Assembly: GCA_934098485.1 (NCBI GenBank)
Contig: CAKOOH010000001.1
Coordinates: 68,329-132,328, forward strand
Source: an uncultured Bacilli bacterium
GTDB lineage: Bacteria > Bacillota_I > Bacilli_A > RF39 > UBA660
Length of the DNA: 64,000 nt
Reading direction: 5' to 3'
The notes beneath the pieces were generated by a model that worked only from the letters and a program-made list of their open reading frames with translations, was not told where the DNA came from and searched no databases. Position numbers and translations under genes: made by a program. Positions within the stretch are counted from its first letter, which is position 1. Each line of letters opens with the position of its first letter. Below, piece by piece: positions 15,171-45,929 of the stretch.

Positions 15171-17360
15171 ATGGAAGTTACTTTTAGAAATTATGAGACA
15201 AATAAAGATATTACACTTAATTCAGAAAAATCTTTATTAGTAATTTATGGTAAAAATGGTAGTGGAAAGACAACTTTATCGAGAAATAATTATTTTGATA
15301 AAAATTATGTTTTTAATGAAGATTTTATTTTTTCGAATGTTTATAATATTACAGAAACTGGTGCTTCGCAAACCGCTTCCACTAAAGAAAAATTTTCCGG
15401 ACTTTGGTTAGGCGAAGATATTGTAAAAATAAGAAAAGAAATTAGTAATATATTGGAAATTGAGAAAAAGATAAAAAATGATTTTCAAACTGAACAAACA
15501 AAATTACTAGATTTTTTTGCTAAAAATCAAATTCAAGTTAATATTTATGATAAAATCAAAGAATTAAATGATAAAGATTTTTGCTTGAATTTAGAAAAAT
15601 ATGATGAGCAAAAAGAAAACTATATTTCGACTTTAATTTTTAAAACCAATATAACAGATAAAGAAAAGTTTATTGAAAAATTAACATATTATAGAAAAAA
15701 TGATATTTATAATATGCTTGTTTCAAAGATAAAATCTAATAACTTATTATCTGAATTAATATTTGCAGATGTTAAAGGTTATATTGATAATATAAATATG
15801 AGGATAAGTCTATTAAGTAAGCAAAAAGAAATAATAGATGAAGTTGAAAAAATATATAAAGATGAAGAAATTACTAATGATCTAAAGGAAAAAATACAAG
15901 ATTGGTATGAAATCCATAAGGATAGGAATAAATGTGTATTTTGTGGCAATACAAATATAGAATCTGCAAAAACAAAATGGAAAAAAGTTTTTTTGAATGA
16001 ATTTATTGATTGCAAAAATAAATTAATAAAGGAATTAAGAATTGATTTAAATTATTGCGAAAATATTATCAATGAAAAACAATTTGCTGAAGTTGATAAA
16101 GATATTATTGACACTATTTCTAAATTGATCAACTATTTAAAAAAATACATTGAAGATACCGAAAAAAATGTATTTTCAAAATTTGAATATAAAGTGGAAT
16201 TTGTAAAAAAAGAAATTGTAGAATTAAATGATTTAATAAACAATTTAGTTAATTATGTTTTGAATAAAAAGAAAGATATCTTAGGTTTTTATCATAATTC
16301 ACAGCAATTTGTAGAAAAATTAAAAAAAGAAAAATTAGAATTAACTGATAAATTAATGGATGAAAAAGGCATTATAATAGCTGATAGTATAAACAAAAAA
16401 TTTGAAAAATTTGGATTAAATAAGAATATAAAGATAATTGTTGATAAACGCTCTACACCTCACAAATTTACATATTCTATCGAAAATCATAGTAATATTA
16501 ATGAATTAAGTGATGGTCAAAAACATAAATTAGCGCTAGCAATTTTTATGAATTATCTTGAAAATCACGATTTGAAAGGTAAAACAATTGTTATTGATGA
16601 TCCAGTGGTTTCACTAGACATTTCGAGTTATATTTTATTTAAACAATATTTATTAAATGATTTAATAATTCAAAAATTTGATGAAAGTACTAAATTGATA
16701 TTATTAACACATGATATCACATATTTATATATCCAATTGTCTAATATATTTGAGAATCAACATATGAGAAATATAACGCAAGTATTTAAATTGAATGGGG
16801 TTAAAATCGAAGAAATTCCATTAGACTTTATTAAAACAGATGACATCACACTATTTAGAGAAGCACTTGATAGTTTAACAAACATATCTGAACTAAGAAT
16901 ATTGAATGCAATAATAAATAAAATTTTCAGAATTGAAATAGACCTTAAGTTAAGGTTTTTTGGATTATCACTTACCGATAAAATAGGAATCGAAGAATTA
17001 AAAATTGATGAGGATAAAAAGAAAATAATTCGAGATTATGGGAAACACATTGTAGAAACAAGCAGAAGAGATCATCCGACCGATAGTGATATTCAACAAA
17101 GTTTATTATATTTAAAAGAAGTATCAGATATTTTAGGATTTAATGATTTTATCACAGATAACCATATTGAAAATATTAATAAAATAGTTAATGAACAAAT
17201 AGATGGACCAATAAATAGTGAGTTGTTTAATTTAATTGACTCTGTAAAGAAATTCCTAAAATCGGATAATAATGATGACTTTAAAAATTATATTGAACAT
17301 ACAAGGAATTCTTATACTCGTAATCTTATTGGTTTGGGGTTAGATGATTATTTCAATTAA
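15171..17360 (+). CDS. RloC/PrrC-like ABC ATPase with a coiled-coil zinc hook; putative abortive-infection anticodon-nuclease-type protein
   Basis: Walker A GKNGSGKTT. A long coiled coil contains CVFCGN (a CxxC hook). D-loop/Walker B IVIDDPVVSLD (AAA_13-like). The C-terminal roughly 200 aa are uncharacterised (..ETSRRDHPTDSD..). Confidence 0.4.
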   Translation: MEVTFRNYETNKDITLNSEKSLLVIYGKNGSGKTTLSRNNYFDKNYVFNEDFIFSNVYNITETGASQTASTKEKFSGLWLGEDIVKIRKEISNILEIEKKIKNDFQTEQTKLLDFFAKNQIQVNIYDKIKELNDKDFCLNLEKYDEQKENYISTLIFKTNITDKEKFIEKLTYYRKNDIYNMLVSKIKSNNLLSELIFADVKGYIDNINMRISLLSKQKEIIDEVEKIYKDEEITNDLKEKIQDWYEIHKDRNKCVFCGNTNIESAKTKWKKVFLNEFIDCKNKLIKELRIDLNYCENIINEKQFAEVDKDIIDTISKLINYLKKYIEDTEKNVFSKFEYKVEFVKKEIVELNDLINNLVNYVLNKKKDILGFYHNSQQFVEKLKKEKLELTDKLMDEKGIIIADSINKKFEKFGLNKNIKIIVDKRSTPHKFTYSIENHSNINELSDGQKHKLALAIFMNYLENHDLKGKTIVIDDPVVSLDISSYILFKQYLLNDLIIQKFDESTKLILLTHDITYLYIQLSNIFENQHMRNITQVFKLNGVKIEEIPLDFIKTDDITLFREALDSLTNISELRILNAIINKIFRIEIDLKLRFFGLSLTDKIGIEELKIDEDKKKIIRDYGKHIVETSRRDHPTDSDIQQSLLYLKEVSDILGFNDFITDNHIENINKIVNEQIDGPINSELFNLIDSVKKFLKSDNNDDFKNYIEHTRNSYTRNLIGLGLDDYFN

Positions 17361-17374
17361 AAAGACCTAGTCCA

Positions 17375-18614
17375 CTAAAGGACTAGGTCATCTTCTTTTT
17401 TATTATCTAAATCTTCATTATAATCATAATACTCAGCATCTTCATAATCAATAATTGTTTCTTTAGGTTCAGGTAATTCTTTCTGCTTACTTTCTAATAA
17501 TTTAGTATTTTGAACTTCTATAATTTGAACTATGTTCTCAAGTCTATTTTGGTACATATGAGAGTAGGTATTAAGTGTTTCATCAATTTTAGAATGTCCT
17601 AAGTACTTAGCTACTAATATTGGCTCCACTATCAATTAATAGCGATGCACAACTATGTCTAAAATCATGTACTCTTATATCTTTAACACCAGCTTTAAAA
17701 GCATTTTTAGTTTTTCTATCTCTTAATGTAGTTTCTGGTAATGGATCAATATCTCCAAAAACATACCAGTTATCATTGAAATTATAAAATCTACTACTAT
17801 CATCGTATAAATCTTTTAAGTAATTTAATAAGAAATTTGGAATAGGTATTGTTCTGTAACTAGACATTGTCTTGGGACTGGATACAGAGTAGGGTTTACC
17901 AGTATTTGGATCAGGTGTTTTAGTAATATTTTTATTTACTGATAAACAACCTTTTCTAAAGTTAATATCATTCCATGTTAATCCTCTAAGCTCACCATTT
18001 CTTAATCCATAATAGAATAATACTTGAAATGCACATACAAATTTAGGATCATCTTCAACAGATAAGAATTTTTGAAATTCTTCTGGTGTATAGAATAACA
18101 TTTCTCTTTTTCTTTCATTAGGATTAGTGAAATTAGTCATTTTATTATAAACTTTAATAAAATTAATATCATACCATTTAGTTCCAAAATTCATTATTGC
18201 TTTTAAATATTTATAAATACCATTTTTATATCTAGTAGATATCTTTTGCTTATTTATATATTGTCTCCACATTTCATAATGTCTAATATTAAATGATTCA
18301 AGTTTTATATTTAATAAAGGTTCTAAATAAACCATCATATTTTTATAATTATAAAGAGTAGTAGGTTTAACTTTATCTTCTTGATATTTATAATGCTCTT
18401 CAATTAATTCTTTAAAGGTTAAATCACTAAATTCAGTAATATTTTTAATATTAATTTTAAATTCTGCTTCATGATCTTTAGCTTCACGTCTAGTAGCAAA
18501 CTTTTTAGAGTGATATCTTCTGGGTCTTCCTAAGTAATCTCTATAAGTTAAATCGACCATCCATGTTCGACCATCTTTTGTAGCTTCTTTATTTTTTACT
18601 TGTCTTATAGCCAT
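17375..18614 (-). pseudogene. tyrosine recombinase/integrase, frameshifted (integrase paralog 1)
   Basis: ORF 17607-18614 has an N-terminal arm-binding-like domain and the catalytic-core boxes (..HDFRHSCASLL). ORF 17375-17635, in another frame, supplies LVAKYLGHSKIDETLNTYSHM, which includes the catalytic Tyr. The two ORFs overlap at 17607-17635. Confidence 0.7.
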
Positions 18615-18679: not shown

Positions 18680-18975
18680 TCTTACACCTATTCTTTAGGA
18701 ACTCAAAGAAAGCCAATAAGTGGAAATGAAATACCAAATATTATAAAAGTAGTAAATAATTTTAAAGAGAATAAAGAATTTGATTATGATAAGGCTTTTG
18801 TTGTTTCTAAAGAAGAATTATTAAAAGATGATTGTTCTCTAACTTTAAATAAATACAAAAAAGTTGAAGTAGAAGAAAAAGAATATGAAAAACCAGAAGT
18901 AATTCTTAAAGAAATAATGGATATGGAGGAAGAATTTAAAACAAGACTTAAAGAACTTGGAGAGATGATTAAATG
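18680..18975 (+). pseudogene. hsdM: 3' remnant of the type I RM methyltransferase hsdM (about 98 codons, no start codon)
   Basis: The frame opens after TAG 18677-18679 with no ATG near the 5' end. The translation ...FDYDKAFVVSKEELLKDDCSLTLNKYKKVE...EEFKTRLKELGEMIK resembles an HsdM C-terminus. Its stop overlaps the hsdS start (ATGA). Confidence 0.55.
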
Positions 18976-20079
18976 AAATATCTAAAAATAAAAGATATTA
19001 TTGTAAATACTTCTCCAGAAAAAGTCCCAGTTGGAACTACTCCCTACATTGAAATAGGTGATATTGATATATTTAATAAAACATATCAACATAAAGACAA
19101 AAAATCTGTTAGCGGAGCTAAATACGCATTAAAAGACTCAATTATAGTATCAACTGTAAGGCCTACTAGAGGAGCAATTTCTATAATAAAAGAAGAAAAA
19201 ATAACTGTATCTAACGCATTTGCTATTATAAATGTAGATAAAGAACAATGTAATTTTAAATATTTATTTTATATGATAAATAGCAATAAATTTTATCAAT
19301 ATTTAGGATCTAATTCAAAGGGAGCAACTTATCCTACTTGTTCGAGAGAAGATGTTTATAATTATGAAATTGCATTACCTTCCTTAGACGAACAAAACAA
19401 AATAGTTAAAATATTCGACAACATATCTAATAGTATTATTGTTAAGAAACAACAGGTATTTAAACTAGAACAATTAATTAAATCACAATTTATCAAAATG
19501 TTTGAAAAAAATAACGATTATAAAACATTTAAATTAGAAGAGATTGGATATATGCAAACTGGTGGAACTCCATCTAGAAAAAATAATGAATATTTCAAAG
19601 GAAATATAAATTGGTTTACTGCTGGAGAATTGAATAGCCTGTTTATTAATGATTCTATTGAAAAAATAACTGTCGATGCATTAGAACATAGTTCTGCAAA
19701 ATTGTTTAAAGAAAACAGCTTATTGATAGGAATGTATGATACAGCGGCTATGAAAATGGGTATTCTAAAACATGAAGCAGCTTCGAATCAAGTATGTACA
19801 AATTTTTATCCCAAAGATAATAATGTAAATATAATTTGGTTATATTATTATCTCAACCATCACAAAGAAGATTTGCTAAACGAAAGAAAAGGAATCCGTC
19901 AAAAAAATATAAGTCTGGCTATATTAAAGAATTATTCAGTTAAGTTATATTCAATTATGATTCAAAATAAGTTTGCTAACATAGTAAAACGAATCGATAA
20001 ACAGAAATATGAATTTGAAAAACAATTAGAAAAATTAAAAGAATTACAAGAATCATTGATGAAAGAGTATTTCGGATAA
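18973..20079 (+). CDS. hsdS: type I restriction-modification specificity subunit HsdS (two TRDs)
   Basis: 368 aa with two target-recognition halves separated and followed by conserved coiled-coil repeats (LPSLDEQNKIVKIFD.. and ..LKELQESLMKEYF). Confidence 0.8.
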   Translation: MKYLKIKDIIVNTSPEKVPVGTTPYIEIGDIDIFNKTYQHKDKKSVSGAKYALKDSIIVSTVRPTRGAISIIKEEKITVSNAFAIINVDKEQCNFKYLFYMINSNKFYQYLGSNSKGATYPTCSREDVYNYEIALPSLDEQNKIVKIFDNISNSIIVKKQQVFKLEQLIKSQFIKMFEKNNDYKTFKLEEIGYMQTGGTPSRKNNEYFKGNINWFTAGELNSLFINDSIEKITVDALEHSSAKLFKENSLLIGMYDTAAMKMGILKHEAASNQVCTNFYPKDNNVNIIWLYYYLNHHKEDLLNERKGIRQKNISLAILKNYSVKLYSIMIQNKFANIVKRIDKQKYEFEKQLEKLKELQESLMKEYFG

Positions 20080-20146: not shown

Positions 20147-22876
20147 ATGGGTAGAATAAAACCAGAAGTTGAAATTAAATATATTTGTAGTGTGATTGAT
20201 AAAAACATTGTTGCACATTCTAAATTGAAAGATAGGGGATTATTATCAGAAAATATTCTTTCACAATTGAGAAATTTAACCGAAGATATAGCTATATTGA
20301 TTAATAATAAAGAGAATTCTTTAAATTTGGATTGCCATTACGATAATGTTGACACTTCAATGGATTTTGTTGCTGGAAAGAGTAAGTATAAATACATAAA
20401 GAAATTTCATGATTTTCTTCAATCTACTGTTTCTCATTATACTCCTGGAGAAAATGATGCAGAAAGATTAATGTTATATTATTTTAGATATTTGTGCATG
20501 TTTAAACAAACTTTATTAGATGAGTGTTCATTAAATATCCTTGATAAATTAGAGGATTTTCCGATATATGAAGATGAATTGACCAAAAATCATTATAAAG
20601 AGATATGCAAAAAAATAGAAGAAGTAGAAGATTTAACTAACAAAAGTTTAAAAAGAGGTAAGTTTTATGTTAATAAATGCAGGCCAATATATGCTTTTGG
20701 GAAACTATATTATGAGTTGACTTTAACAAAAGCGACAGATTATGTTAATAAATTTGAACGAATTTTAATGTATTCGAAACACTATATTCCAGATAATTAT
20801 TCTATAAAATTATCATATATAGAAAAAGAATTAAAAATTTTTTCATATGATTCTAAGATTAAAGTTATTGATAATTATATTATTTCAATTAGACCATGCG
20901 AAATAAGAAACATAGGAAGATTATTAGGAATTGATAAAAATGTTGATGATAATTATAATGAATATATTAGCTTAATGAAAATACTAAAGGAAGAAGAAAT
21001 AAATCTACTAGAATTATTAATGTCAGACAATATTAAATACAATAATTATTTAGCAATTATTAAGGAAAAAGCTCAAAACAATAATATATCTGAATTATTA
21101 GATAGATTACATGATAGATTAAGCCAAGAACTACCTGGTAATAATATTTTAAGGTATTGTTTAGTTAAAATGGAAAATTCTGTAATTAAGGATCAATTCC
21201 AACGTGTTCAAAATGAACATATTGGCAATCTTTATATTAAAAACCAAAGCATTCCATTCGATTCAATGCCATATGCTATGTCTCCATATAAGCATAATGT
21301 AAGTTGGTTTCATTTGGTTAGTGCAATTGATAATGATGGTCGAGAATATGAGCTACTTGGAAAAAGTATAAAATACAATTCAGAAATGAATAATAAATTA
21401 TATACAGATTTAGATGAAGTAGAAAAGTTTGGTAATGTAGATTCTCTTATAAAAAAATACAACGACGCACTTATATTGTATGGTATTGATTCTTCTGATA
21501 AAAGTAAGATAATTAAAGAAAATAATCTTTTGTTCATAAATTCATATGAAAAAAATTCTATTGAAATAATTAAAAAACTAAAAGCTTATATGTATAAACC
21601 ATCAGAAGAAATAATAGATACTTTTTCGAATAATATTTTAAATTATCCATTAGTAGACTTAACAGATGATAAAATAGAAATAACTAAAAAAATGTTTAAA
21701 AATAATTCTATTGTATTTATACATGGCCCTGCTGGAACTGGAAAAACTAAGATGTTAGAAGTAGTAGCAACAGCTTTTATAAATTATAAAAAAATATATT
21801 TATCTAATACAAATACATCAGTTGAAAATCTTAGAAGAAGAATTCTAAAATATGATGAAGAAAATTCCAATTTTGAAACAACATCACATTACATTAAATA
21901 TAATAATAATGATTATGATATTTTAATAATTGATGAAGGAAGTACTATCAGTAATGAAGAAATGCTTAAGGTATTAAATAAACAACAATATAAGCTGATA
22001 GTATTATCTGGAGATGTCTTTCAAATTGAATCTATAAAATATGGAAATTGGTTTTCTTTATCATATAATATATTTAAAAATGATTTCGTTTTTGAATTAA
22101 TTAAAACAAACAGAACTGATGATAAAGAATTATTAGAACTATGGAAACTAATAAGAGATAATAATGATCAGGCATATAATAAAATATGTAATCAGGAATA
22201 TTCATCTCTGCCAAATGAGAGTATTTTTAATAAAATAAGTGATGATGAAATAATATTATGTTTAAACTATGATGGATTATTTGGAATAAACAATATAAAT
22301 AAACTTCTACAAGAGAAAAACTCTAATAAAGAATATAATATTGGTATTGACTCATATAAGATTGATGATCCAATTGTATTTAATGATTGTCCTAGATTCA
22401 ATAATCTATATAATAATTTAAAGGGAAAAATTAAAAGTATAGAATTAGATGATGAAAATGATAGAGTATGGTTTACAATTTTAGTAGATGATTTTTTGCT
22501 TGATGAACCATTTAAATACGAAATACTTGATTATGTTGGATATAAGACTTTAATAAAGTTTTATGTTAATAATTTTAAGGATACTAATGATGATGAAAAT
22601 GGTTATGATCATATTATTCCATTTAATCTTGCATATGCAATTTCCATTCATAAAGCACAAGGTTTAGAATATGATTCTGTTAAAATAATAATCACTTCTA
22701 ACGTCGAAGATGATATTACAAAGAATATTTTTTATACAGCAATTACTAGAACAAAAAAATATTTAAAAATATTTTGGAGTTCTGAAAGTCAAGTAAAAAT
22801 ATTTGATCAAATGAAAAAGAGAAACAATTCGAGAGACATTTCAATTCTAAAACAAAAAATGAATATTAATTTATAA
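20147..22876 (+). CDS. 909-aa protein with a C-terminal SF1 RecD/Pif1-like helicase domain (AAA_30/UvrD_C_2-like) and a roughly 500-aa uncharacterised N-terminal region
   Basis: Motif I IFIHGPAGTGKTKM. Motif II LIIDEGSTIS. Motif III SGDVFQ. C-terminal SIHKAQGLEYDSVKII...FYTAITRTKKYLKIF. The N-terminal half has no recognisable motif. The gene has its own RBS and an upstream terminator. Confidence 0.55.
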   Translation: MGRIKPEVEIKYICSVIDKNIVAHSKLKDRGLLSENILSQLRNLTEDIAILINNKENSLNLDCHYDNVDTSMDFVAGKSKYKYIKKFHDFLQSTVSHYTPGENDAERLMLYYFRYLCMFKQTLLDECSLNILDKLEDFPIYEDELTKNHYKEICKKIEEVEDLTNKSLKRGKFYVNKCRPIYAFGKLYYELTLTKATDYVNKFERILMYSKHYIPDNYSIKLSYIEKELKIFSYDSKIKVIDNYIISIRPCEIRNIGRLLGIDKNVDDNYNEYISLMKILKEEEINLLELLMSDNIKYNNYLAIIKEKAQNNNISELLDRLHDRLSQELPGNNILRYCLVKMENSVIKDQFQRVQNEHIGNLYIKNQSIPFDSMPYAMSPYKHNVSWFHLVSAIDNDGREYELLGKSIKYNSEMNNKLYTDLDEVEKFGNVDSLIKKYNDALILYGIDSSDKSKIIKENNLLFINSYEKNSIEIIKKLKAYMYKPSEEIIDTFSNNILNYPLVDLTDDKIEITKKMFKNNSIVFIHGPAGTGKTKMLEVVATAFINYKKIYLSNTNTSVENLRRRILKYDEENSNFETTSHYIKYNNNDYDILIIDEGSTISNEEMLKVLNKQQYKLIVLSGDVFQIESIKYGNWFSLSYNIFKNDFVFELIKTNRTDDKELLELWKLIRDNNDQAYNKICNQEYSSLPNESIFNKISDDEIILCLNYDGLFGINNINKLLQEKNSNKEYNIGIDSYKIDDPIVFNDCPRFNNLYNNLKGKIKSIELDDENDRVWFTILVDDFLLDEPFKYEILDYVGYKTLIKFYVNNFKDTNDDENGYDHIIPFNLAYAISIHKAQGLEYDSVKIIITSNVEDDITKNIFYTAITRTKKYLKIFWSSESQVKIFDQMKKRNNSRDISILKQKMNINL

Positions 22877-23017: not shown

Positions 23018-23057
23018 CCCCCTGAAGAGAGCATTTAACCGTGTTCTCATTTTTTTA
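23018..23057 (+). terminator. CCCCCTGAAGAGAG-hairpin-T8 terminator element, copy 2 of 3
   Basis: CCCCCTGAAGAGAG at 23018-23031. Hairpin GAGAGCA-tttaaccg-TGTTCTC (one G-U pair) followed by ATTTTTTT. Confidence 0.5.
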
Positions 23058-23106
23058 TAAGAAATTAAGCATTTTATATAAGATCTTACTAATTTTTAAT
23101 AAGTTT

Positions 23107-23140
23107 TTAGGTAAGAATTAGGTAATAAAAATTTACCTAA
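23107..23140 (+). repeat. TTAGGTAA tandem doublet plus inverted copy, copy B'
   Basis: TTAGGTAA at 23107-23114 and 23118-23125. TTACCTAA at 23133-23140 gives the palindrome AGGTAAtaaaaatTTACCT. The 20-mer TTTAGGTAAGAATTAGGTAA is identical to copy D. Confidence 0.7.
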
Positions 23141-23295: not shown

Positions 23296-23856
23296 ATGAT
23301 AGAATTCCCTATACTTGAAAAAAATGAAATTGTTTTAAGAAGATTAGAAACAAGCGATTATAAAAGTTACCTTGACTATGTAACTGATGAAAAAATCTCC
23401 AGTCAATTTAATTTTAATTATAATGAGGAAAGTGCAAAGTTGCGATTAGAAGAATTAGTTGAAAAATATTCACAAGAAAATAAGCCATTTGTTTGGGTAA
23501 TAGCATTGAAAGATACAGATGAATTTGTTGGAATGATAACAATTGATTCGATTTCTTTTAGTAATAAGAGATTCAGTTTAGCTTATGGAATTAGGGCCAC
23601 TTATCGTGGTAATAATTATGCTTATATTGCCAGTGTTGCCTTAATAAATTATATTTTTAATAATTTTGATATGCATAGGTTAGAGTTAGCACATAATACA
23701 GATAACTTTGCATCACAAAAAATTATTGAAAAATTAGGTGCAAAATTTGAAGGAATAGCAAGAGAATCTAAATTCTATAACAACGGGTTTAAGGATCGCA
23801 AAATATATAGTATTTTAAAACAAGAGTGGTTAGAAGGCAAGAATAATGAATTATGA
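23296..23856 (+). CDS. GNAT-family N-acetyltransferase (RimJ/RimL-like)
   Basis: N-terminal IVLRRLETSDYKSYLDYVTDEKI and the acetyl-CoA binding region ..HRLELAHNTDNFASQKIIEKLGAKFEGIARES.. Confidence 0.65.
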   Translation: MIEFPILEKNEIVLRRLETSDYKSYLDYVTDEKISSQFNFNYNEESAKLRLEELVEKYSQENKPFVWVIALKDTDEFVGMITIDSISFSNKRFSLAYGIRATYRGNNYAYIASVALINYIFNNFDMHRLELAHNTDNFASQKIIEKLGAKFEGIARESKFYNNGFKDRKIYSILKQEWLEGKNNEL

Positions 23857-24451
23857 AATTTTAGTAAATAAGGAAAATCCAATTAGTGATGAATTAAAAG
23901 TAGAAGAATTAGTATCAGTTGGGAAACATTATAGCTTAGCAAATTTAGTATATACCGATCAAGATGTTCTTCTTGAAAAAACTGCAGCAATATTTTTAAA
24001 ACAGTTATTAGAGGATGCAAATAAGATTGATGAACATGTTGTTGTAGTACCAAACTCAGGTCATCGTAGTTTAGAATATCAAGAAAGAGTTATGGATTAT
24101 TATATTAAATTAGAAGGTTTGGAAAAAGCCAAAAGGCGAGTTGCTGCGCCAGGCACATCTGAACACCATACAGGTCTAGCAATTGATTTAATACTTTTTT
24201 ATAATGGTCAACTTTTAAAAGATTTAAATCAAGCATTAAAAACAATTATTTTTATTTATAATAATGCTCACAAATATGGATTTATTTTAAGATATCCAAA
24301 AGATAAAGAATGCATTACTGGCTATCCTTATGAACCATGGCATTTTAGATATGTTGGTATAAAGTTAGCTACATACTTATACGAGAATAGTATGACCTTA
24401 GAAGAATATTATTTAAATAAAAGACTTAACAATAATTTAGGTAAGAATTAG
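23846..24451 (+). CDS. VanY-type D-Ala-D-Ala carboxypeptidase (M15 family)
   Basis: ..SGHRSLEYQERVMDYY..AAPGTSEHHTGLAIDL..YGFILRYPKDKECITGYPYEPWHFRYVG shows the canonical VanY/M15B motifs SxHxxGxAxD and EPWH. Confidence 0.7.
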   Translation: MNYEILVNKENPISDELKVEELVSVGKHYSLANLVYTDQDVLLEKTAAIFLKQLLEDANKIDEHVVVVPNSGHRSLEYQERVMDYYIKLEGLEKAKRRVAAPGTSEHHTGLAIDLILFYNGQLLKDLNQALKTIIFIYNNAHKYGFILRYPKDKECITGYPYEPWHFRYVGIKLATYLYENSMTLEEYYLNKRLNNNLGKN

Positions 24452-24455
24452 GTAA
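24437..24455 (+). repeat. TTAGGTAA tandem doublet, copy D
   Basis: TTAGGTAA at 24437-24444 and 24448-24455. The 20-mer is identical to copy B'. It overlaps the stop codon of the VanY gene. Confidence 0.65.
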
Positions 24456-24643
24456 GAAAAAAGTAAAATGGGCTAACAAGATATAGCAAAACAACTTTTA
24501 ACACTTTTTAGCACATTTTAACACCAAATGAACGAAAATGAATCGATAATCCACAACCCCCTGCCACATCCAACGAAAAATCAGAATTGATTAAAGCCAA
24601 TGTTTATAAGGGTTTGTGAGCATATAGAAGATTGAAAATAATT

Positions 24644-24665
24644 CTTGGGAACAACTTGGGAACAG
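24644..24665 (+). repeat. CTTGGGAACA(A/G) perfect tandem doublet (period 11)
   Basis: CTTGGGAACAA followed by CTTGGGAACAG, about 120 bp upstream of the 24785 operon. A related GGGAACAA doublet lies at 34073-34092. Confidence 0.6.
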
Positions 24666-24784
24666 GTTTTACTAAAATCGCATGATTATTGCAGACATTT
24701 AAGTAGAAAAGTAGTATAATGGAATCATAAAGTTCTATACAATTAAAGTATAGAATTTTTTCTTTTTATAAGGAGGGTATTTAT

Positions 24785-25432
24785 ATGAATGAATTAGTAC
24801 CAGAGTTTAATGATTCCTTATTAATTGATTCTTCAGATATAATCGGTGATTATTTAGAATTGGGAATTGATAGTATTTTAGATAATGAAAGTTTGAAAGA
24901 AATACCCATTATTAAGACATTTATAGGTGTAGGAAAAATTACAAAGAGTATTAGAGAAAGAAACTTAATGAAGAATCTTGCAATTTTTATAAATGAACTT
25001 AATAGTGGAAAAATAGATAAAGAAAAACTTAGTAAGCATAAGGAAGAGTTAAGACAAAATCCTAGAAAAGCAGAAAAGGAATTAGGAAGAATTTTAATAA
25101 TTTTAGAACAAACGATAGATAACATTAAATCATCAATATTAGGAAAACTCTATAAAGCATATATTAACCAAGAAATTGATTGGGATGGGTTTGCTGAATT
25201 TAGTGAAATAACTAATAGACTTTTTATGTTTGATATAAACATTCTTAACGTCATGTGGTCTAAAGAGTATAATGCTTATATCGAACAAAAAGATGATAAT
25301 TTTAGAATAGAAAGAATGTATTCATTAGGAATAATTGGTAATATATTTCCATCTATCAATGAAACTAAACATTTACATGGAAGAGTATTGAATGGATTAG
25401 GTAAAAAATATTGCGATATAATTTTTAGATAG
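24785..25432 (+). CDS. hypothetical protein (215 aa), first gene of a two-gene operon of unknown function
   Basis: Strong RBS AAGGAGGG. No recognisable motif and no TM segment. Confidence 0.5.
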   Translation: MNELVPEFNDSLLIDSSDIIGDYLELGIDSILDNESLKEIPIIKTFIGVGKITKSIRERNLMKNLAIFINELNSGKIDKEKLSKHKEELRQNPRKAEKELGRILIILEQTIDNIKSSILGKLYKAYINQEIDWDGFAEFSEITNRLFMFDINILNVMWSKEYNAYIEQKDDNFRIERMYSLGIIGNIFPSINETKHLHGRVLNGLGKKYCDIIFR

Positions 25433-25443
25433 GAGGTTAAATA

Positions 25444-26907
25444 TTGAAAGGATTAAAATTTTCTGAGTTATTTGAAGTTGAAAAAGAAATATTGGAAGAG
25501 GAGGGCTTTGTAGATCTTTCCCTTTTATGCGACTTGCCACTGTTTATAGATCCATTTTTAATATTTGGTAGTCAAAAAGAAGAATATCAATTATTAAATG
25601 ACGAAATAAATAAGTATTTATTATTTCTAAAAAATAAAGCTATTAATTATGATTTGACAAAAGGCTTATTAAAAAGTTGGTTTACTTTTTCTGAAGTCTC
25701 AAATAACTGGCTCGGGTACTGTAAATTTGGAAATAAGGGTTCTGGATTAGGAACAAAATTTGCAAAAAACTTATACTTTAATCTAAAAAACAAATTAAAT
25801 AATTTTGGTAGTAGTGATATTTTAAAAGTAGACCATATAGAAAAATTATGTCTAATAGATGACAATATAGGTTCCGATAATATTAGCGATTTTGTTGTAA
25901 ATATTATAAAAAAGTATTTCTTGGATAAAACACAAGCGTTTGCTCAAAAGTATTTAAAAAAAGAACATTGCAAATTGTTTAAAGTCGATAAAGTATACTT
26001 TGATTATGATTTAGAAAGATGGATGCCAAAGCAATACTATCTTCCATTTATCAATGATGAATATATTATATTAACACCTATAGATATGTTGACAAAAGAT
26101 TCTTCATGGTTAAACACAAATGATATGTTGGATAGATTTTATTTGATAGTAGAAAAAATACCAAATGAACAATTAAAATTTGAAATAAATAATTATTTAT
26201 CCTCACTATATAAAAAAGACATGACAAAAGAAGAAAAGAGAAAGGGACAATTAGATGTTATAAAAGAATTTCCTGTGTTGATAGATTACTATCTCTTAGA
26301 TCGTGAAGACACCATTGATGAAGCTTCTTCAAGAGGGATAGAAAAGAGCTTATTTATAGATGAAACAATACCAACAATTGTACAGGGAATAGCTAATGCA
26401 TTAAAAGAAACACAATTTTATGACTGCGATGATTCTTCATTTGAAGAGGCAAAAAAAAGAGCTTATTATTTGAAAAAATGTATTGAAGATAATGATGTTT
26501 ATAGGTTGTTCTATGATTCAAAAGGAAATGTTAGACTAACAAAAGAAGAAGATTTACAATTATTATTTAGATTAGTTTGTTTTGGTGTTATTTCTGATGT
26601 TAATAGAGAATGTAACAATGGACGAGGACCTGTAGATTATAAGTTTTCTAAATCTAACTTTGATAAGTCATTAATAGAATTTAAATTAGCTAATAATTCT
26701 AAACTAAAACAAAATTTAAAAAATCAAGTTCAAATTTACGAAAAAGCAAATGACACAAAAAAATCGATAAAAATTATTTTATATTTTACTGATAAAGAAA
26801 AAGAACGTGTAGATAAGATTTTGAAAGAATTAAAACTAACGAATGATGAATCTATTATCTTAATTGATGCAATTAATAATAAAAAGTCTGCTTCAAATGT
26901 TAAATAA
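25444..26907 (+). CDS. hypothetical 487-aa protein with a C-terminal RecB/Cas4-like PD-(D/E)xK nuclease motif
   Basis: TTG start 7 nt after RBS AGGAGG, 11 nt after the upstream stop. C-terminal ..GRGPVDYKFS...SLIEFKLANN..KNQVQIY gives the D...EFK...QxxxY pattern of RecB-family nucleases. The N-terminal roughly 350 aa are unassigned. Confidence 0.45.
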   Translation: MKGLKFSELFEVEKEILEEEGFVDLSLLCDLPLFIDPFLIFGSQKEEYQLLNDEINKYLLFLKNKAINYDLTKGLLKSWFTFSEVSNNWLGYCKFGNKGSGLGTKFAKNLYFNLKNKLNNFGSSDILKVDHIEKLCLIDDNIGSDNISDFVVNIIKKYFLDKTQAFAQKYLKKEHCKLFKVDKVYFDYDLERWMPKQYYLPFINDEYIILTPIDMLTKDSSWLNTNDMLDRFYLIVEKIPNEQLKFEINNYLSSLYKKDMTKEEKRKGQLDVIKEFPVLIDYYLLDREDTIDEASSRGIEKSLFIDETIPTIVQGIANALKETQFYDCDDSSFEEAKKRAYYLKKCIEDNDVYRLFYDSKGNVRLTKEEDLQLLFRLVCFGVISDVNRECNNGRGPVDYKFSKSNFDKSLIEFKLANNSKLKQNLKNQVQIYEKANDTKKSIKIILYFTDKEKERVDKILKELKLTNDESIILIDAINNKKSASNVK

Positions 26908-27011
26908 TTAAAATAACCGAGAAACTAATCTGAAGTTGTAAGATAAAAGTAGACAGAAAAAACTGTTTACTTTTTTTCTTTGATATAATTTGTATAAGGA
27001 GATGATAAAAT

Positions 27012-27362
27012 ATGGCAAGTAAAAGGCAAAAATTTAAACATTGGTCAAAAGAAGAAAAATTAAGGATAGTCAAAAAGATTGTTAATGAAGGTAAATCTAG
27101 TTATCAAGTAGCAAAAGAAGAAAATATTCAATCAACAGGAATGATTAGACATTGGGTAAAACTTTATATTGAGCAAGGAGAAAATGCATTAGTAAATAAA
27201 AAGAAACCAGGTAATCCTTTAAGTAAATATCAAAATAAAACGAACTTAACAAAAGAAGAACAATTAGAATACGAAAATATGAAATTAAGAATTGAGAATG
27301 AACTATTAAAAAAAGGATACCTAATGAAAGGAGATGGTACAATTGTAAAATTCATGAAGTAA
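27012..27362 (+). CDS. IS3-family transposase OrfA (HTH plus leucine zipper)
   Basis: MASKRQKFKHWSKEEKLRIVKKIVNEGKSSYQVAKEENIQ... is a typical IS3 OrfA. An A7 slippery run (A_AAA_AAA G) lies at 27308-27315, near its 3' end. Confidence 0.75.
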   Translation: MASKRQKFKHWSKEEKLRIVKKIVNEGKSSYQVAKEENIQSTGMIRHWVKLYIEQGENALVNKKKPGNPLSKYQNKTNLTKEEQLEYENMKLRIENELLKKGYLMKGDGTIVKFMK

Positions 27363-28249
27363 CTCAAATAAAATATGAAATAATCTAGAATTTAAGTAAG
27401 GAATATAATATTAAATCATTATGTTTGATAATGAAAGTATCTAGAAGTGGTTATTATAGATGGTTAAAAAATAAAAATATATTAAATCAACATGAAATTA
27501 ATCGTAAAGATTTAGGTGAATTAATTAAAGATATTCGCAAAAGAAAACCAAGTTACGGATATCATAAGATTAATGCAATAATAAGACGTGAAATTGGTTG
27601 AATTGTATCGGATAATTTAGTTCATAAGGTATGTAAAATATTAAATATTAAATCAAAAGCCAAACATTATAAATACAAGAAACTTGGAATGGAATCAATT
27701 AAATATTCAAATCAAATATGTGGTAATTGGAACACATCTAGACCATTTGAAAAAATAGTATCAGATACAACTACGTTTTGGTTTAAGAAAAAGAAATATG
27801 ATTGGACTTTCTATTTAGATATATTTAATAATGAAATAGTTGGTTATGATGTAAGGGATTCAATGCACGGCAATGGTATTATAAATCATAGAGAAGCACT
27901 GAATAATATGTTAAATAACAAAATAAAAAGAGGATATAAAGACCTAGAAACAATCGTTCACACTGATCAAGGTTCAGTATATTCCTCAGTGTCATTTAAC
28001 AATATATTCAATTCTTATAAAGTTACCAGATCTATGTCAAAAGCTGGCACACCAACAGATAATCCAGTTATCGAATCTAAAAATGGCTGGATTAAAAAAG
28101 AAATGTATATTGATTTTGACATAAATAATTATAACACAGTTCAAGAATTTATTGATGAATTTGTTTATGATAATAATTATTATAGACCTAGTTATGCATT
28201 AAATTATAAAACCCCCATCGAGTATAAAACTCAATTGGTGTTTAATTAG
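27314..28249 (+). pseudogene. IS3-family transposase OrfB (DDE/rve), interrupted by in-frame TAG and TGA stops
   Basis: The -1 frame contains ..SRSGYYRWLKNK..RKPSYGYHKINAII.. and the catalytic core HTDQGSVYSS..DNPVIESKNGWIKKE. In-frame stops lie at 27386-27388 (TAG) and 27599-27601 (TGA). Confidence 0.6.
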
Positions 28250-28286
28250 AACTTTTTGTGTCTACTTTTTGTTGACAACTTCAAAA

Positions 28287-29287
28287 CTAATCCTCGGTTT
28301 TATTATTATCTAAATTATCTATTACTGCAACTACTTCATCTAAAGTGCTTGTAAATAGATGTGAATAAGTTTTTAAAGTTTCTTCAACTTTTGTGTGACC
28401 TAAGTATTTTGCTACAACTTGAACATTAGCTCCTTTATTAACTAAAAGAGATGCACATGAATGTCTAAAATCGTGTAATCTAATTTGCTTAACATTAGCA
28501 AATTTACAGTTAACATTTTTATGATTAGTAAGTGTATTGCTACATACAGGAAGCATGTCTCCAGCAACAAAGAAATTATCATTGAATCCTGGTATCTTTT
28601 CTGCCTCGTTTTTCACCATTTTAAGGTCATTTGTGAGGACTTGTGGCATTTTTAATATTCTTATACTACTTTTTGTTTTAGGAACCGAGAATCACCAATT
28701 TTTAATGGAACCACGACGGTCATTAATTTGCTTGGAGATACTTAAAGTTCTATCTTTAAAATTGATATCTTTCCATTGTAATCCTCTAAGCACTCCACGT
28801 CTTAATCCACAGTAATATAATATTTCAAAAATACCAATCTATTTGATATCAGTTTCAACAGAAAGAAATTGTTTAAATTCTTCATAAGTAAAAAATAATT
28901 GTTCTTTAGGAAATTCATTAGAATCATTAAAGTTATACATTTTAGGATATACCTTAGCAAAGTTAAACTCATGCCAAGCAGTAGCATAATTCAAAATAGT
29001 TTTTAATAATTTATATATGTCATTTTTAGTTCTTGTAGCAAGATGAGTACTATTTATTTCATCATGCCATCTTTCAAAAGTAGGGTGGTTAAAATCTTTA
29101 AGTTTAACTTTATATAATGATTTTAAATAAGGCAATTTGTTGTTATAACCATATAATGTATTTTCCTTAACTTTATCTTTTCTAAAATATACTTTTCCAA
29201 ATAACTATCATAGTTATTATAAAAAGGATCAATAACCTTTTCACATTCTTCATCACTTATATCTTCATCAGTACATTTCCTTAACAT
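28287..29287 (-). pseudogene. tyrosine integrase paralog 2, multiply frameshifted and 3'-truncated by the IS
   Basis: Fragments 28287-28649 (..RLHDFRHSCASLLVNKGANVQVVAKYLGHTKVEETLKTYSHL..) and 28839-29135 are paralogous to integrase 1 (..FLSVEDDPK versus FLSVETDIK). The start is ATG 29287 with RBS GGAGGTG. The last codons are encoded by the IS right inverted repeat. Confidence 0.6.
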
Positions 29288-34195: not shown

Positions 34196-34234
34196 CCCCT
34201 CCTGAAGAGAGCATCTAACCGTGCTCTTATTTTT
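34196..34234 (+). terminator. CCCCTCCTGAAGAGAG-hairpin-T5 terminator element, copy 3 of 3
   Basis: AGAGCA-tctaaccg-TGCTCT hairpin followed by TATTTTT. It is preceded by a TATAAT-like box at 34184-34189. Confidence 0.5.
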
Positions 34235-34282
34235 GTGCCTATTTTATAAGGAATTGTGAGGTATCAAGTTTGCTAAAATAAT

Positions 34283-34301
34283 TTAGGTACAATTTAGGTA
34301 C
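34283..34301 (+). repeat. TTAGGTAC tandem doublet (period 11), copy E
   Basis: TTTAGGTACAA followed by TTTAGGTACAA, about 45 bp after terminator element 3. Confidence 0.65.
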
Positions 34302-34468
34302 AAAAAAATTTGATTTAAGTATAGTTCATTGCATAAAAGTGATGAAAATGGCAAAAAAATCTTTTGTAAAAATATGTTGTTATTCTTTGCAAGTTATTTG
34401 GAAGTTCCACATGGTGAAGGAGATTTTTCACTTCTTATTAAGAACTTAGTAAAAATGATTGTACTACT

Positions 34469-41432: not shown

Positions 41433-42782
41433 TTAAAGTTTGATTATTTCAAGGTCTTTTTTGTTTTCTTTAATTAATTCTTTAACAAAAAGAGAGTAAT
41501 TACTATATGGTACTAGAAGATAAGCACTATTTCTTGTTCTAGTAAGGGCAACATAAAAAAGTCTTCTTTCTTCTTCATAAGGAATGGTTTCTTTAAATGA
41601 TAAAAGATTTATTATTTGATGATTTTTAATTTTTGAGGGTAAACTATTAGTTTTGTTTAAAAGATTAATAATTATTATATTATCTTCTTCTAAGCCTTTA
41701 GATTTATGAATTGTCAGAAACTTTATATTATCAGATTCTGAGACATTAAATGTTTCTTTATCTTTATTATTTCGTCCTAAAATTAAAATATGACCACCAA
41801 TTAATTTAATTATTTTTTCTAAACAAGTTTTTTCGTTTTTGTAAAATACTATTTTGATGGGTTTTTCAGTATCCTTTAAACAAATAGTATTTTTTTTAAT
41901 TTGTTTTTTATTTTTCATAATAAAGTTATTGGTAATATTAACGAGAGTCTGACTGTTTCGATAATTATAATCTAGATTAATAATAGTTAGATTTTCAAGA
42001 TAATCTTTTAGATTTATAAGAATTTTTAAATCACAGCCACTAAAACGGTATATTGATTGGTAATCATCTCCGACCGCAAAAAGATGTCCGTTATTTTGAT
42101 CAATGATTGCTTTTATTAAATTAAATCTAATTAGGGAAGTGTCTTGAAATTCATCTATGATAACAAATTTATATTTAGTTTTTACTTCATTATTATTTAT
42201 TTTGGCAGTGCCGATACTAATCATATCATTAAAATCAAGATAACCTGATGATGATAGTTCATTTTGATATAATAAGTAAATTTCAATAATAAGTAAAAGA
42301 TAATCTTTGGTTATAAAATGAGCATTTTTATATAGAGATATGAGATAATCAATATTACTGTAATTGGCTTTATAGAGATTTATAAAAGTTGAAATTAAGT
42401 TAATTAGATTATCTTTAGTGTTTTCTAATAAAATTTTTCTGATGATTTTCTTTTGTCTTTTATTTTGGGGCTTATTAAGATATTCTTTAATTAAAAATGT
42501 AAGCATGCTTTCTTTGGCAATTTTAGTATTATCATCACGAATTAAATCTAAAGCTAGTTTGTGAAATGTTTTTACATCTATATTATATTTAATTTTTCTT
42601 TTTATATCATTTACAGATTCATTAGTAAAAGAAATGGCGAGTATTTCATTTTCTTTATATAGATTATTTTCAATTAAATAATTAATTTTATTTATGATAG
42701 TAAAAGTTTTCCCGGAACCAGCACCGGCGATTAATAAAACATTACCAAGAGTAGTAACGGCCAATTGTTGTTTTTCATTCAT
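41433..42782 (-). CDS. compact UvrD/Rep-family SF1 helicase
   Basis: MNEKQQLAVTTLGNVLLIAGAGSGKTFTI (motif I). C-terminal ..RRLFYVALTRTRNSAYLL. Own promoter TTGACA-17 nt-TATATT just upstream. The TTG-extended ORF to 42818 would run through that promoter. Confidence 0.6.
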   Translation of the reverse strand: MNEKQQLAVTTLGNVLLIAGAGSGKTFTIINKINYLIENNLYKENEILAISFTNESVNDIKRKIKYNIDVKTFHKLALDLIRDDNTKIAKESMLTFLIKEYLNKPQNKRQKKIIRKILLENTKDNLINLISTFINLYKANYSNIDYLISLYKNAHFITKDYLLLIIEIYLLYQNELSSSGYLDFNDMISIGTAKINNNEVKTKYKFVIIDEFQDTSLIRFNLIKAIIDQNNGHLFAVGDDYQSIYRFSGCDLKILINLKDYLENLTIINLDYNYRNSQTLVNITNNFIMKNKKQIKKNTICLKDTEKPIKIVFYKNEKTCLEKIIKLIGGHILILGRNNKDKETFNVSESDNIKFLTIHKSKGLEEDNIIIINLLNKTNSLPSKIKNHQIINLLSFKETIPYEEERRLFYVALTRTRNSAYLLVPYSNYSLFVKELIKENKKDLEIIKL

Positions 42783-42827
42783 GATTACTAATATAAGATA
42801 AGAAAAAAATATTGTCAATCAAAAAAA

Positions 42828-45800: not shown

Positions 45801-45929
45801 TTTATTTATAACTCGCGCAGTTAAAACAGCAGTTTTTCCAGAACCAGCACCTGCAGAAACAATGATATTTGATCCTTCGGTATTTATTGCTTTTTGTTGT
45901 TCTAGAGTCCATTTAGGCATCAATATCAT
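42828..45929 (-). CDS. addA: ATP-dependent helicase/nuclease subunit A (AddA)
   Basis: N-terminal MPKWTLEQQKAINTEGSNIIVSAGAGSGKTAVL. The C-terminal RecB-type nuclease has GVIDLL...IIDYKLKHTSD. Confidence 0.85.
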   Translation of the reverse strand: MILMPKWTLEQQKAINTEGSNIIVSAGAGSGKTAVLTARVINKIKNGIHVNELLILTFTNNAAAEMKTRIKKAILEDEEIKKEAKLVESSSITTFDAFVLSLVKKYHYLLNLDQNISIIDSSIINNQKKNIINEIFNELYLENNQNFIDFVTSFCGKNDKPIKKIILSLDSKIDLLINKEEYLKNYINDYYSEENINFLFNEYVNNLLKRIETIKTSLYNLSFEAPEKFFNNYSQALTPLINAKTYDEIRNNLDIGSFRLTGSTENGKYYKSEITNIIKVLKSYTFYDKEVLINDLRSTKKYAEIIIDVLLKLNNKVSSFKRKYQMFEFNDISKMAINLIKNNENIRNDLKDSFKEIMIDEYQDTSDIQEEFIKLIENNNVYMVGDIKQSIYRFRNANPDIFKIKYDLYKNNNGGIKIDLNKNFRSRDAVLYSINNIFNHIMDDELGNADYQKEHQLVFGNMMFNEIGNNSYNNNLEIYRYEKDDIHKKEEIEAFIIGNDIKEKIENKYLVLDNTLRPCTYKDFCILMDRTSSFDIYKKVFDYLMIPLNIYKDENILISNETYLIKNIVGLIINIKNHIYDETTKFYFTSIARSYLFSMNDNEIYEIIINKKLSETTIYKYCLEIVNNLESFGNKELIETIIDKFDFYKRMITIGNINYRTIILNNLINKIADLNKVGIDIYGINDYLASLINDKEELKINALITESDSVTITNIHKSKGLEYKICYFSGFHKDFNMDEVKAKFIFNNKYGLIIPTYDNGIKSSFVSFINKEKYIKDEISEKIRLFYVALTRCKEKMIIVTELKDDAIMTADNNEVIDYLSRIKYKNFKNILESIYPYLEKYIKNVKVPEINNNYKINKEIDISNLKVAENEIIVNEIEEKNEVINEEHYSKEQNKLITNTEKENMLLGIKLHYILENIDFKNPNFSLLNEFEIDIVKNLLNNKLLENIKDAKIYKEYEFIYEENNISKTGVIDLLLTFENHNIIIDYKLKHTSDAAYLKQLTGYKNYIEYKTNKQTSIYLYSLLDKKLVDLN

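Follow-up and report, generated by a model that had tools for sequence, protein, structure and literature searches.

A predicted nuclease gene of the DUF8370/DUF8371 family in a one-gene exchangeable slot, preceded by a candidate regulator gene

Introduction

PDC-M36 is a phage-defence candidate that was recognized by "guilt by embedding" and consists of a three-gene cassette, FAM_01399>>FAM_00303>>FAM_00303 (Payne et al., bioRxiv 10.1101/2024.01.29.577857). A partial relative of its A component is found in the DNA analysed here, a 64,000-nt stretch from an uncultured Bacilli bacterium (assembly GCA_934098485.1, contig CAKOOH010000001.1, positions 68,329 to 132,328), termed the window. The relative is the 487-aa product of gene 2, the second of two adjacent open reading frames (ORFs); the first, gene 1, encodes 215 aa. 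Positions given are those of the whole window. L followed by a number denotes a comparison locus, and P followed by a number a protein homolog found in the searches.

For gene 1 the systems to be compared are regulators of defence islands and an abortive-infection protein. BrxR/CapW are WYL-protein regulators in defence islands (PMC9122601) and RptR is a 9-kDa defence-island regulator (PMC12255303). AbiAlpha from E. faecalis prophage 6 is a prophage-borne, single-gene abortive infection (Abi) system of approximately 270 aa with no known domains (PMC6356687). No description of the gene 1 family was found in the literature and libraries searched, and no experimental work on either the gene 1 or the gene 2 protein was found in the literature searched.

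With moderate confidence, the locus is best explained as an autonomous DUF8370/71 nuclease cassette situated at an integrase-adjacent hotspot and led by gene 1, a probable DNA-binding regulator. The original prediction, made from the sequence letters, described a two-gene operon that encodes a dedicated sensor/partner and a nuclease. The operon is as described: the ORF coordinates, an 11-nt gap between the genes, the overlap of the gene 2 ribosome-binding site (RBS) with the gene 1 stop codon and the TTG start of gene 2 are all read in the sequence (Table 1). The dedicated partnership is not supported by the data below. The new element is the gene 1 family, which has no Pfam entry, as a candidate winged helix-turn-helix (wHTH)-type companion; gene 2 belongs to a DUF family that is already catalogued.

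Gene 2 occurs apart from gene 1

Loci of gene 2 homologs from 80 other species were surveyed, 73 of them with both neighbours called. A gene 1 profile search showed no gene 1 relative at any of the 80 loci. At 47 of the 73 the gene 2 homolog has no same-strand neighbour within 30 nt, and the 20 tightly coupled upstream genes that were found encode products ranging from 71 to 1094 aa. The upstream genes in Peribacillus, Vibrio and one gut contig are unrelated to gene 1 and to one another. BLASTP and PADLOC searches ruled out that upstream neighbours are hidden relatives of gene 1 or of PDC-M36B, and four of these neighbours gave no PADLOC match. Among 145 immediate neighbours no Pfam family appears more than 8 times. 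The commonest families are ResIII/HSDR_N (HsdR), Phage_integrase and Methylase_S (HsdS), which points to Type I restriction-modification (R-M) operons and mobile elements as the setting of the family.

Gene 1 and gene 2 are found together only in close gut relatives (the window, L010-12 and L100-102). Lack of co-occurrence in other genomes was named in the original prediction as a refutation; the pair is seen in one narrow gut lineage and at none of the 80 loci from other species. The gene 1 relatives are found with at least 10 neighbour types. As the surveyed gene 2 loci of other species have no gene 1 relative and gene 1 relatives pair with many unrelated genes, the two genes do not form a constant pair. 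From its distribution, gene 2 appears to be a widespread stand-alone accessory gene. The usual absence of a partner, an antitoxin or a cognate methyltransferase argues for self-control of gene 2.

These data also bear on a toxin-antitoxin-like arrangement, in which gene 2 would be a toxic nuclease and gene 1 a DNA-binding, autoregulating antitoxin. A small gene upstream of a large one, overlapping translation signals, the DNA-binding-like fold of gene 1 and the palindrome in its leader would all fit such a pair. Antitoxins co-evolve with their toxins. However, gene 2 homologs show no conserved upstream partner, the loci that are not uncoupled being heterogeneous, while one and the same gene 1 stands next to genes for unrelated proteins, and gene 1 is sometimes downstream of its neighbour. 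A toxin-antitoxin pair is therefore highly improbable.

Cassette exchange next to a recombinase

The window and L007 share the same chromosomal neighbourhood, with a PDC-S53 helicase on the upstream side and a methyltransferase on the downstream side. The two gene 1 proteins have 91% identity. The DNA identity of 89% extends from position 24596 to 25444, the first base of the gene 2 start codon, and is seen again from 28288, at the end of a recombinase remnant. L007 carries a Schlafen-like AlbA_2 gene where the window has gene 2. In L010 both genes are found elsewhere on the chromosome, together with a recombinase that is intact (241 aa), and the DNA is 90% identical to that of the window. The synonymous divergence (pS) between window and L010 is 0.163 for gene 2 and 0.456 for gene 1; thus the two genes have different histories. 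The locus is a clean natural example of the exchange of a one-ORF cassette at an integrase-adjacent hotspot. The slot that gene 2 fills is bounded by gene 1 on the left and a convergent tyrosine-recombinase gene on the right, and related strains hold AlbA_2 in it.

In several relatives gene 1 is intact beside a decayed cassette. Gene 2 has a frameshift in L101 (3649-5108), in L102 (5669-7129) its position 89 is a nonsense codon, and in L103 (5666-5752) only the final 29 codons are left. The AlbA_2 gene is frameshifted in L096-98, again with gene 1 intact. The decay could reflect a cost of nucleases, or assembly errors.

The block around P0457, a gene 1 protein 63% identical to that of the window, consists of gene 1, AlbA_2, a convergent 374-aa tyrosine integrase, a 220-aa minus-strand repressor-like gene, HTH_3 and Phage_rep_org_N. 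The block is inserted behind NT5C in one place, behind RecG in another and behind a trypsin-like gene in a third. Its presence at three or more sites indicates that gene 1 and the cassette are cargo at the integrase-proximal end of an integrative element, prophage-like or similar to a phage-inducible chromosomal island (PICI), and the slot in the window would have the same placement. Counterparts of the window recombinase are intact in L174-177 (374 aa) as well as in L010.

Gene 1 relatives are present also on phages and plasmids. Two temperate gut Heliusvirales phages (L182/L183: PV036427, PV036430) carry relatives of 34% and 27% identity at the extreme end of the genome, past the lysis module. 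Others are on phage-like, non-mobilizable IncFIB plasmids of approximately 110 kb in Klebsiella (L184, NZ_CP083035) and Enterobacter, which encode their own dnaE, recombinase and exonuclease. All are annotated as hypothetical, and no nuclease gene is found beside the gene 1 relatives on these phages and plasmids.

The gene 2 family

A database search gave more than 3,389 homologs of gene 2, with lengths of approximately 485-500 aa. PF28123 (DUF8370) and PF28130 (DUF8371) are precomputed on P0001 and on every full-length homolog among the matches listed; gene 2 itself is assigned through P0001 (95% identical, same 90% cluster) and not by direct scoring. A local Pfam copy older than the DUF8370/8371 models yielded only a noise-level DUF5347 match at E <= 1. 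Gene 2 is a plain member of the family and displays no differing feature. All homologs are named "hypothetical protein" except P0114 (JGI), which is named a Cas4/RecB-family exonuclease.

In a scan of one genome per species, homologs with 43-51% identity to the window protein are present in at least 582 species of Bacillota, Pseudomonadota, Bacteroidota, Actinomycetota, Planctomycetota, Acidobacteriota, Nitrospirota, Chloroflexota and candidate phyla radiation (CPR) bacteria. Relatives are found on 15 of 72,556 plasmids and on seven IMG/VR contigs, and on none of 50,697 phage records. A Vibrio parahaemolyticus homolog (L003/L004, 5037-7455) is situated inside a chromosomal superintegron cassette array. 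Both window genes are under purifying selection (ratio of nonsynonymous to synonymous divergence, pN/pS, of 0.075 for gene 2 and ~0.13 for gene 1). Judged from these sequences, gene 2 is a patchily distributed yet strongly constrained accessory gene, and it behaves as a horizontally mobile gene of the defence/restriction type.

The Vibrio homolog directly follows a gene for a 271-aa protein with a faint DUF4238 match. DUF4238 is the signature of a single-gene defence system.

Positions 28-253 of gene 2 match positions 29-248 of the 457-position PADLOC PDC-M36A profile (E = 1.3e-14), and the Vibrio homolog gives a stronger match (E = 6.6e-24). This profile is the sole tie of gene 2 to a defence catalogue. 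PDC-M36 and gene 2 are alike in the N-terminal half of gene 2 and in that both occur embedded in R-M loci, but the C-terminal nuclease half of gene 2 lies outside the profile match. There is no PDC-M36 B component next to gene 2, as gene 1 has no PADLOC match and an insertion sequence (IS) element follows downstream. No mention of DUF8370 or DUF8371 was found in the literature searched, and searches with PDC-M36 and the Vibrio homolog accessions found nothing there.

According to the original prediction, the N-terminal part of gene 2 and the whole of gene 1 match nothing recognisable. This holds in that neither matches a characterised family; gene 1 gives no match in Pfam, NCBIfam or PADLOC. 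It does not hold in that gene 2 is already in Pfam as DUF8370+DUF8371 and is a partial relative of PDC-M36A.

Gene 2 may alternatively have no defence role and be a nuclease that serves the mobile element in DNA processing or recombination, or a selfish restriction-like gene. This would agree with the integrases and resolvases among the neighbours, with the occurrence in integron cassettes and on conjugative plasmids, and with a spread across phyla in which ~45-50% identity is retained. On the other hand the flanking elements are heterogeneous, with no consistently linked transfer or replication gene. Gene 2 is often embedded in Type I R-M operons, a pattern used for defence-gene prediction, and it is absent from the phage records. 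A non-defence role is improbable, and gene 2 is taken here as a putative defence gene.

Nuclease domain and N-terminal domain of gene 2

The C-terminal ~120 aa of gene 2 form a predicted nuclease domain with a RecB-type QxxxY motif, because the catalytic set is conserved. In an alignment of 54 homolog sequences all members share E412, F413, K414 and Q428; conservation is at 90% or more for D398 and Y432, and the Q428xxxY432 motif is 14 residues past K414. E368, E389 and N392 are invariant as well. The predicted structure shows the restriction-endonuclease-like alpha-beta-beta-beta-alpha-beta core fold. The top structure matches are BstYI (7.9), BamHI (7.5), OkrAI (7.2) and BglII (6.8), followed lower down by Bax1, McrC, CdiA-CT, Cas4 (5.4), Can2, Cap4 and Shedu SduA (4.7). 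All are PD-(D/E)xK folds, with each alignment covering only ~100-130 residues. A Foldseek search of the whole PDB concurs with this fold, with nothing at E <= 0.001. Sequence searches of PDB chains with the single protein and the family profile gave no match at E <= 10, and the named PD-(D/E)xK profiles (Pfam PDDEXK_1/Cas_Cas4, PADLOC Cas4) do not match gene 2.

The PD-(D/E)xK motif with QxxxY seen in the original prediction is thus borne out by residues conserved in the 54 homologs and by a predicted fold that fits. The label RecB/Cas4-like that was given to it is correct for the fold, the D...ExK residues and QxxxY, all of which are points of likeness to the RecB/Cas4 and restriction-endonuclease PD-(D/E)xK nucleases. 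It fails for the four-Cys Fe-S ligands of Cas4, as there is no conserved Cys in aa 350-487 of the 54 sequences, and for the Cas4 and PDDEXK profiles. The sole near-invariant Cys of gene 2 is C136, which is in the N-terminal domain. In the structural model, the nuclease domain is closer to Type II restriction enzymes than to Cas4.

For the N-terminal ~350 aa, neither structure nor sequence searches of the PDB gave a relative. Invariant residues are D30, D36, E84, N97, H131, E133, K134, D145, S148 and D149, and there is a Gly-rich loop at aa 91-103. The dense invariant polar residues together with the loop suggest a binding or catalytic pocket. Readings of gene 1 and gene 2 motifs as HEPN (Rx4-6H) or as Walker A/GHKL were rejected since they disagree with the order of the motifs or with key residues.

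Gene 2 would thus be a single-protein nuclease consisting of a large N-terminal domain, with a putative sensing or autoinhibitory role, and a C-terminal DNA-cleaving PD-(D/E)xK domain. It may be inactive until the N-terminal domain recognizes a trigger and would then cut nucleic acid. Alternatively, activation could come from a feature of the substrate, modified or foreign DNA, as with Type IV restriction enzymes or Shedu-like proteins. By analogy, gene 2 may work like the class of single-protein sensor-nucleases (Shedu SduA; Card1/Can2/Cap4; Type IV restriction enzymes such as MspJI); it differs from these in that its N-terminus carries no CARF, SAVED, SRA or DUF4263 signature. Membership of gene 2 in Shedu was rejected on the lack of a DUF4263 match, and membership tests for PDC-M36, Cas4 and toxin-antitoxin toxins failed as well.

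If gene 2 protects against phages, this would assign a function to a family that extends to nearly all bacterial phyla and whose conservation, at 43-51% identity, is unusually high. The 350-aa N-terminal domain would then be a candidate for a new type of sensing module.

The gene 1 family

The predicted structure of gene 1 consists of a conserved N-terminus modelled at low confidence (aa 1-55), a middle part made of helices and, as the last third, a winged-helix-like C-terminus. For this C-terminus a possible winged-helix (MarR-like) DNA binder is suggested by the fold search. Relatives of gene 1 carry no precomputed Pfam domain, and the best match among PDB chains in single and profile searches, the uncharacterised protein 4w9r (E = 0.018), is at the noise level. 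An exhaustive profile search gave 2,567 clusters, formed at 50% identity, with E <= 1e-3; the number with E <= 1e-10 is 1,166. The members are mostly ~215-240 aa long. There are two subtypes of the C-terminal (wHTH) region, which do not correlate with the partner or with the operator sequence.

Gene 1 would be a leader gene, most likely encoding a DNA-binding transcriptional regulator of the cassette that follows. This role is suggested by the wHTH-like fold, by the 11-bp-period repeats upstream of the promoter candidate and by the palindrome TTCTATAC-N7-GTATAGAA between promoter and RBS. Like BrxR/CapW, RptR and the R-M C-proteins, gene 1 is first, co-oriented and tightly coupled to diverse defence genes, has direct repeats and a palindrome in its promoter/leader region and shows an association with Type I R-M. 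It has no homology to any of them and in some cases lies within an operon. Neither a WYL nor an HTH_3 domain is detected in it, so that the analogy is one of function only, and it is far larger than the 9-kDa RptR.

The genes adjacent to gene 1 relatives are diverse, mostly of defence type, and include nucleases, ATPases and R-M components (Table 1). AlbA_2 and gene 1 are neighbours in both orders (L181, 4175-8696; L105, 4151-8693; L007, 6001-7880; L174, 5001-6886; L013, 4338-6657), and AlbA_2 may be the commonest companion of the family. In L181 the order is HsdM-HsdS-AlbA_2-gene 1-HsdR, a Type I R-M operon.

Human gut metagenome contigs L108-L153 carry an abundant 226-aa gene 1 subfamily (~42% identical) with variable downstream genes. 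The ~357-aa protein encoded upstream of it has no Pfam or PADLOC match and displays a C-terminal CxxC...CxxC motif. The two may represent a genuine conserved two-gene unit.

Several points weigh against gene 1 as a regulator and gene 2 as an autonomous defence gene. In several lineages gene 1 is internal to an operon, as in L181. Autoregulators are not usually placed in this way, and gene 1 may instead be a partner with a structural or enzymatic role; together with the two orders in which AlbA_2 and gene 1 recur, the position leaves room for an adaptor/partner role or an Abi-like function. The coupling of 11-14 nt between gene 1 and whichever cassette follows could mean a functional stoichiometric partnership. 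Some of the metagenome "pseudogenes" are possibly assembly errors. No experiment was found that ties DUF8370/71 to phage defence, and the related PDC-M36 is itself only a guilt-by-embedding candidate.

Gene 1 as a DNA-sensing or licensing adaptor, working physically with interchangeable effectors (DUF8370/71, AlbA_2, a CoiA-like nuclease or a STAND NTPase) in the manner of one sensor with many effectors, is the account to which several of these points lead. The close coupling to different effectors, with the RBS within the gene 1 3' end, and the recurrence of AlbA_2 on either side of gene 1, among gene 1 proteins of 47-91% identity, are consistent with it, as is the conserved aa 1-55 segment of low confidence, which is what would be expected of a segment folding on a partner. 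Against this, the gene 2 family is without gene 1 at all surveyed loci of other species and is mostly monocistronic. Gene 1 proteins that are 91% identical stand beside unrelated partners, and the C-terminal subtypes do not track the partner. Further, gene 1 is without an adjacent effector on phages and plasmids and is intact where the cassette is broken. An adaptor role is unlikely, if the strongest of the alternatives. Somewhat more doubtful is the broader proposal that the whole gene 1 family (~2,500 clusters) is a portable adaptor that licenses or triggers unrelated adjacent effectors, ABC-type ATPases among them, and that the DUF8370 N-terminus is a new trigger-sensing domain. If it were true, this would be a new "one adaptor, many effectors" form of immunity, borne by phage-like integrative elements and also placed within Type I R-M operons.

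The intact gene 1 beside decayed cassettes would also be explained by two independent single-gene defences stacked on each other, with gene 1 an Abi-type gene distantly related to AbiAlpha (Pfam Abi_alpha/DUF4393) and gene 2 a separate nuclease. The gene 1 family is of a similar size class to AbiAlpha, and is likewise helical, borne on mobile elements and present as a single gene; its relatives occur in phages and in elements that resemble prophages, and they can be solitary genes. Three of 81 divergent gene 1 relatives give weak Abi_alpha matches, the best of which (E = 0.0018) is near noise. The window gene 1 however has no match to Abi_alpha (PF14337) at E <= 1 and none in PADLOC, and the fold evidence, which suggests a winged helix, favours a DNA binder. 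Stacked defences are quite unlikely.

With gene 1 as a regulator, the role preferred here, or as an adaptor, the family could mark new defence cassettes in Firmicute and gut genomes, a use comparable to that of the WYL regulators (BrxR/CapW) and RptR in Proteobacteria. Experimental follow-up would be worthwhile for the gene 1 family, with its modular associations, as well as for the pan-bacterial DUF8370/71 nuclease.

Control signals and feature positions

The TTG start of gene 2 is supported because the invariant residues F6 and F10 line up in the family alignment. Gene 1 and gene 2 have the same composition as the window (25.3% GC), and close relatives come from human gut metagenomes.

The original prediction placed the genes behind their own promoter and a GGGAACA doublet. 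The doublet is present and is kept in L007, L010, L096, L097, L102 and L103, but is not found in L013 and L174-176. The promoter is a candidate only; its sequence is kept in L007 and L010, and the density of promoter-consensus matches in the region is not above that of shuffled sequence.

The gene 1 leader RNA (24722-24790) shows a fold of -13.7 kcal/mol (z = -3.58 against shuffles) with an AT-rich hairpin and a U-run. In a second stem a pyrimidine run pairs with the RBS. Variants of the palindrome that share a TCTATA core are found upstream of diverged gene 1 homologs in L013 and L174-176. The leader region gives no match in Rfam.

Table 1. Features of the locus and genes adjacent to gene 1 in the window and in comparison loci
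Feature	Position	Strand	Remarks
GGGAACA-N4-GGGAACA direct-repeat doublet	24647..24664	+	11-nt period; upstream of promoter-like site; candidate protein-binding site
Sigma-70-like promoter candidate CAGACA-17-TATAAT	24692..24720	+	10/12 consensus matches
Leader palindrome/hairpin TTCTATAC-N7-GTATAGAA, then T-run	24733..24761	+	10 nt 5' of RBS; candidate operator or attenuator
Gene 1	24785..25432	+	ATG start; 215 aa; TAG stop 25430-25432
Gene 2 RBS AGGAGG	25431..25436	+	Overlaps gene 1 stop; TTG 7 nt on; read from sequence
Gene 2	25444..26907	+	TTG start; 487 aa; DUF8370+DUF8371 family
Gene 2 N-terminal ~350-aa domain	25444..26493	+	Strongly conserved; homology to PDC-M36A N-terminal half
Gene 2 C-terminal PD-(D/E)xK nuclease domain	26536..26883	+	aa ~365-480; alignment and predicted fold
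Catalytic codons of gene 2	D398 26635-26637; E412 26677-26679; K414 26683-26685	+	Family alignment
IS3-family insertion sequence	26909..28305	+	Between gene 2 stop and recombinase remnant; outside module
Degraded tyrosine recombinase, two ORFs	28287..29135	-	Convergent with gene 2; right conserved flank of cassette slot
DUF8370/71	11 nt downstream of gene 1		Window, L010-12, L100-102
SLFN_AlbA_2, 405 aa	11-14 nt downstream of gene 1		L007, L099, L174-177
SLFN_AlbA_2	upstream of gene 1		L013; L105 and L181
STAND-like NTPase, 1067 aa	downstream of gene 1		L013
CoiA-like nuclease	downstream of gene 1		L103
PDC-S06 ATPase	upstream of gene 1		L104
AAA_21 ATPase	upstream of gene 1		L156
ResIII protein, borderline match	upstream of gene 1		L150
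PDC-S22/KilA-N; ASCH protein	PDC-S22/KilA-N downstream, ASCH protein on other side (upstream) of gene 1		L106
Unannotated 357-aa Zn-ribbon protein	constant 48 nt upstream of gene 1		L108-L153

Other features of the island

The IS3-family element downstream of gene 2 has 53-nt imperfect inverted repeats (26909-26961 and 28253-28305) and carries orfA (27012-27362) and a split orfB (27425-27601 and 27689-28249). It is absent from L010.

The island contains several candidate defence genes, as shown by PADLOC matches of neighbouring ORFs, and the defence-island setting assumed in the original prediction is upheld. A 909-aa superfamily 1 (SF1) helicase (20147-22876, plus strand) gives a full-length match to PDC-S53 (E = 3.6e-287), and a 729-aa ORF (15171-17360, plus strand) matches PDC-S06 and MADS mad3.

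A second tyrosine recombinase (17607-18614, minus strand) is intact, lies ~10.8 kb from the degraded copy and is 70-76% identical to it in DNA. It adjoins a Type I HsdS gene (18973-20079), with which it possibly forms a phase-variable specificity locus.

A GNAT acetyltransferase and a VanY D-Ala-D-Ala carboxypeptidase (23296-24451) represent a ~1.5-kb insertion relative to L007, flanked by 35-nt direct repeats (23098-23132 and 24428-24462). An intergenic module of ~110 nt is repeated at 23018-23132, 24428-24462, 24570-24665 and 34198-34308. At 23018 and 34198, 11,180 nt apart, it starts with the 37-nt terminator-like sequence CCCCCTGAAGAGAGCATTTAACCGTGTTCTCATTTTT, the two copies being 89% identical. 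CCCCCTGAAGAGAGCATTTAACCGTGTTCTCATTTTT is followed by TTTATAAG and then by a copy-specific doublet of 11-bp period (TTAGGTAAGAA x2, TTGGGAACAAC x2 or TTTAGGTACAA x2). The module copies may be att-like or regulatory sites that bound an island of ~11 kb.

Further downstream, at 41433-48228 on the minus strand, is a pair of UvrD/AddA-like helicases together with a 771-aa protein whose nuclease domain is Cas4-like, the second occurrence of a RecB-type nuclease motif in the window. These genes probably encode a housekeeping AddAB/RexAB recombination complex that is unrelated to gene 1 and gene 2.

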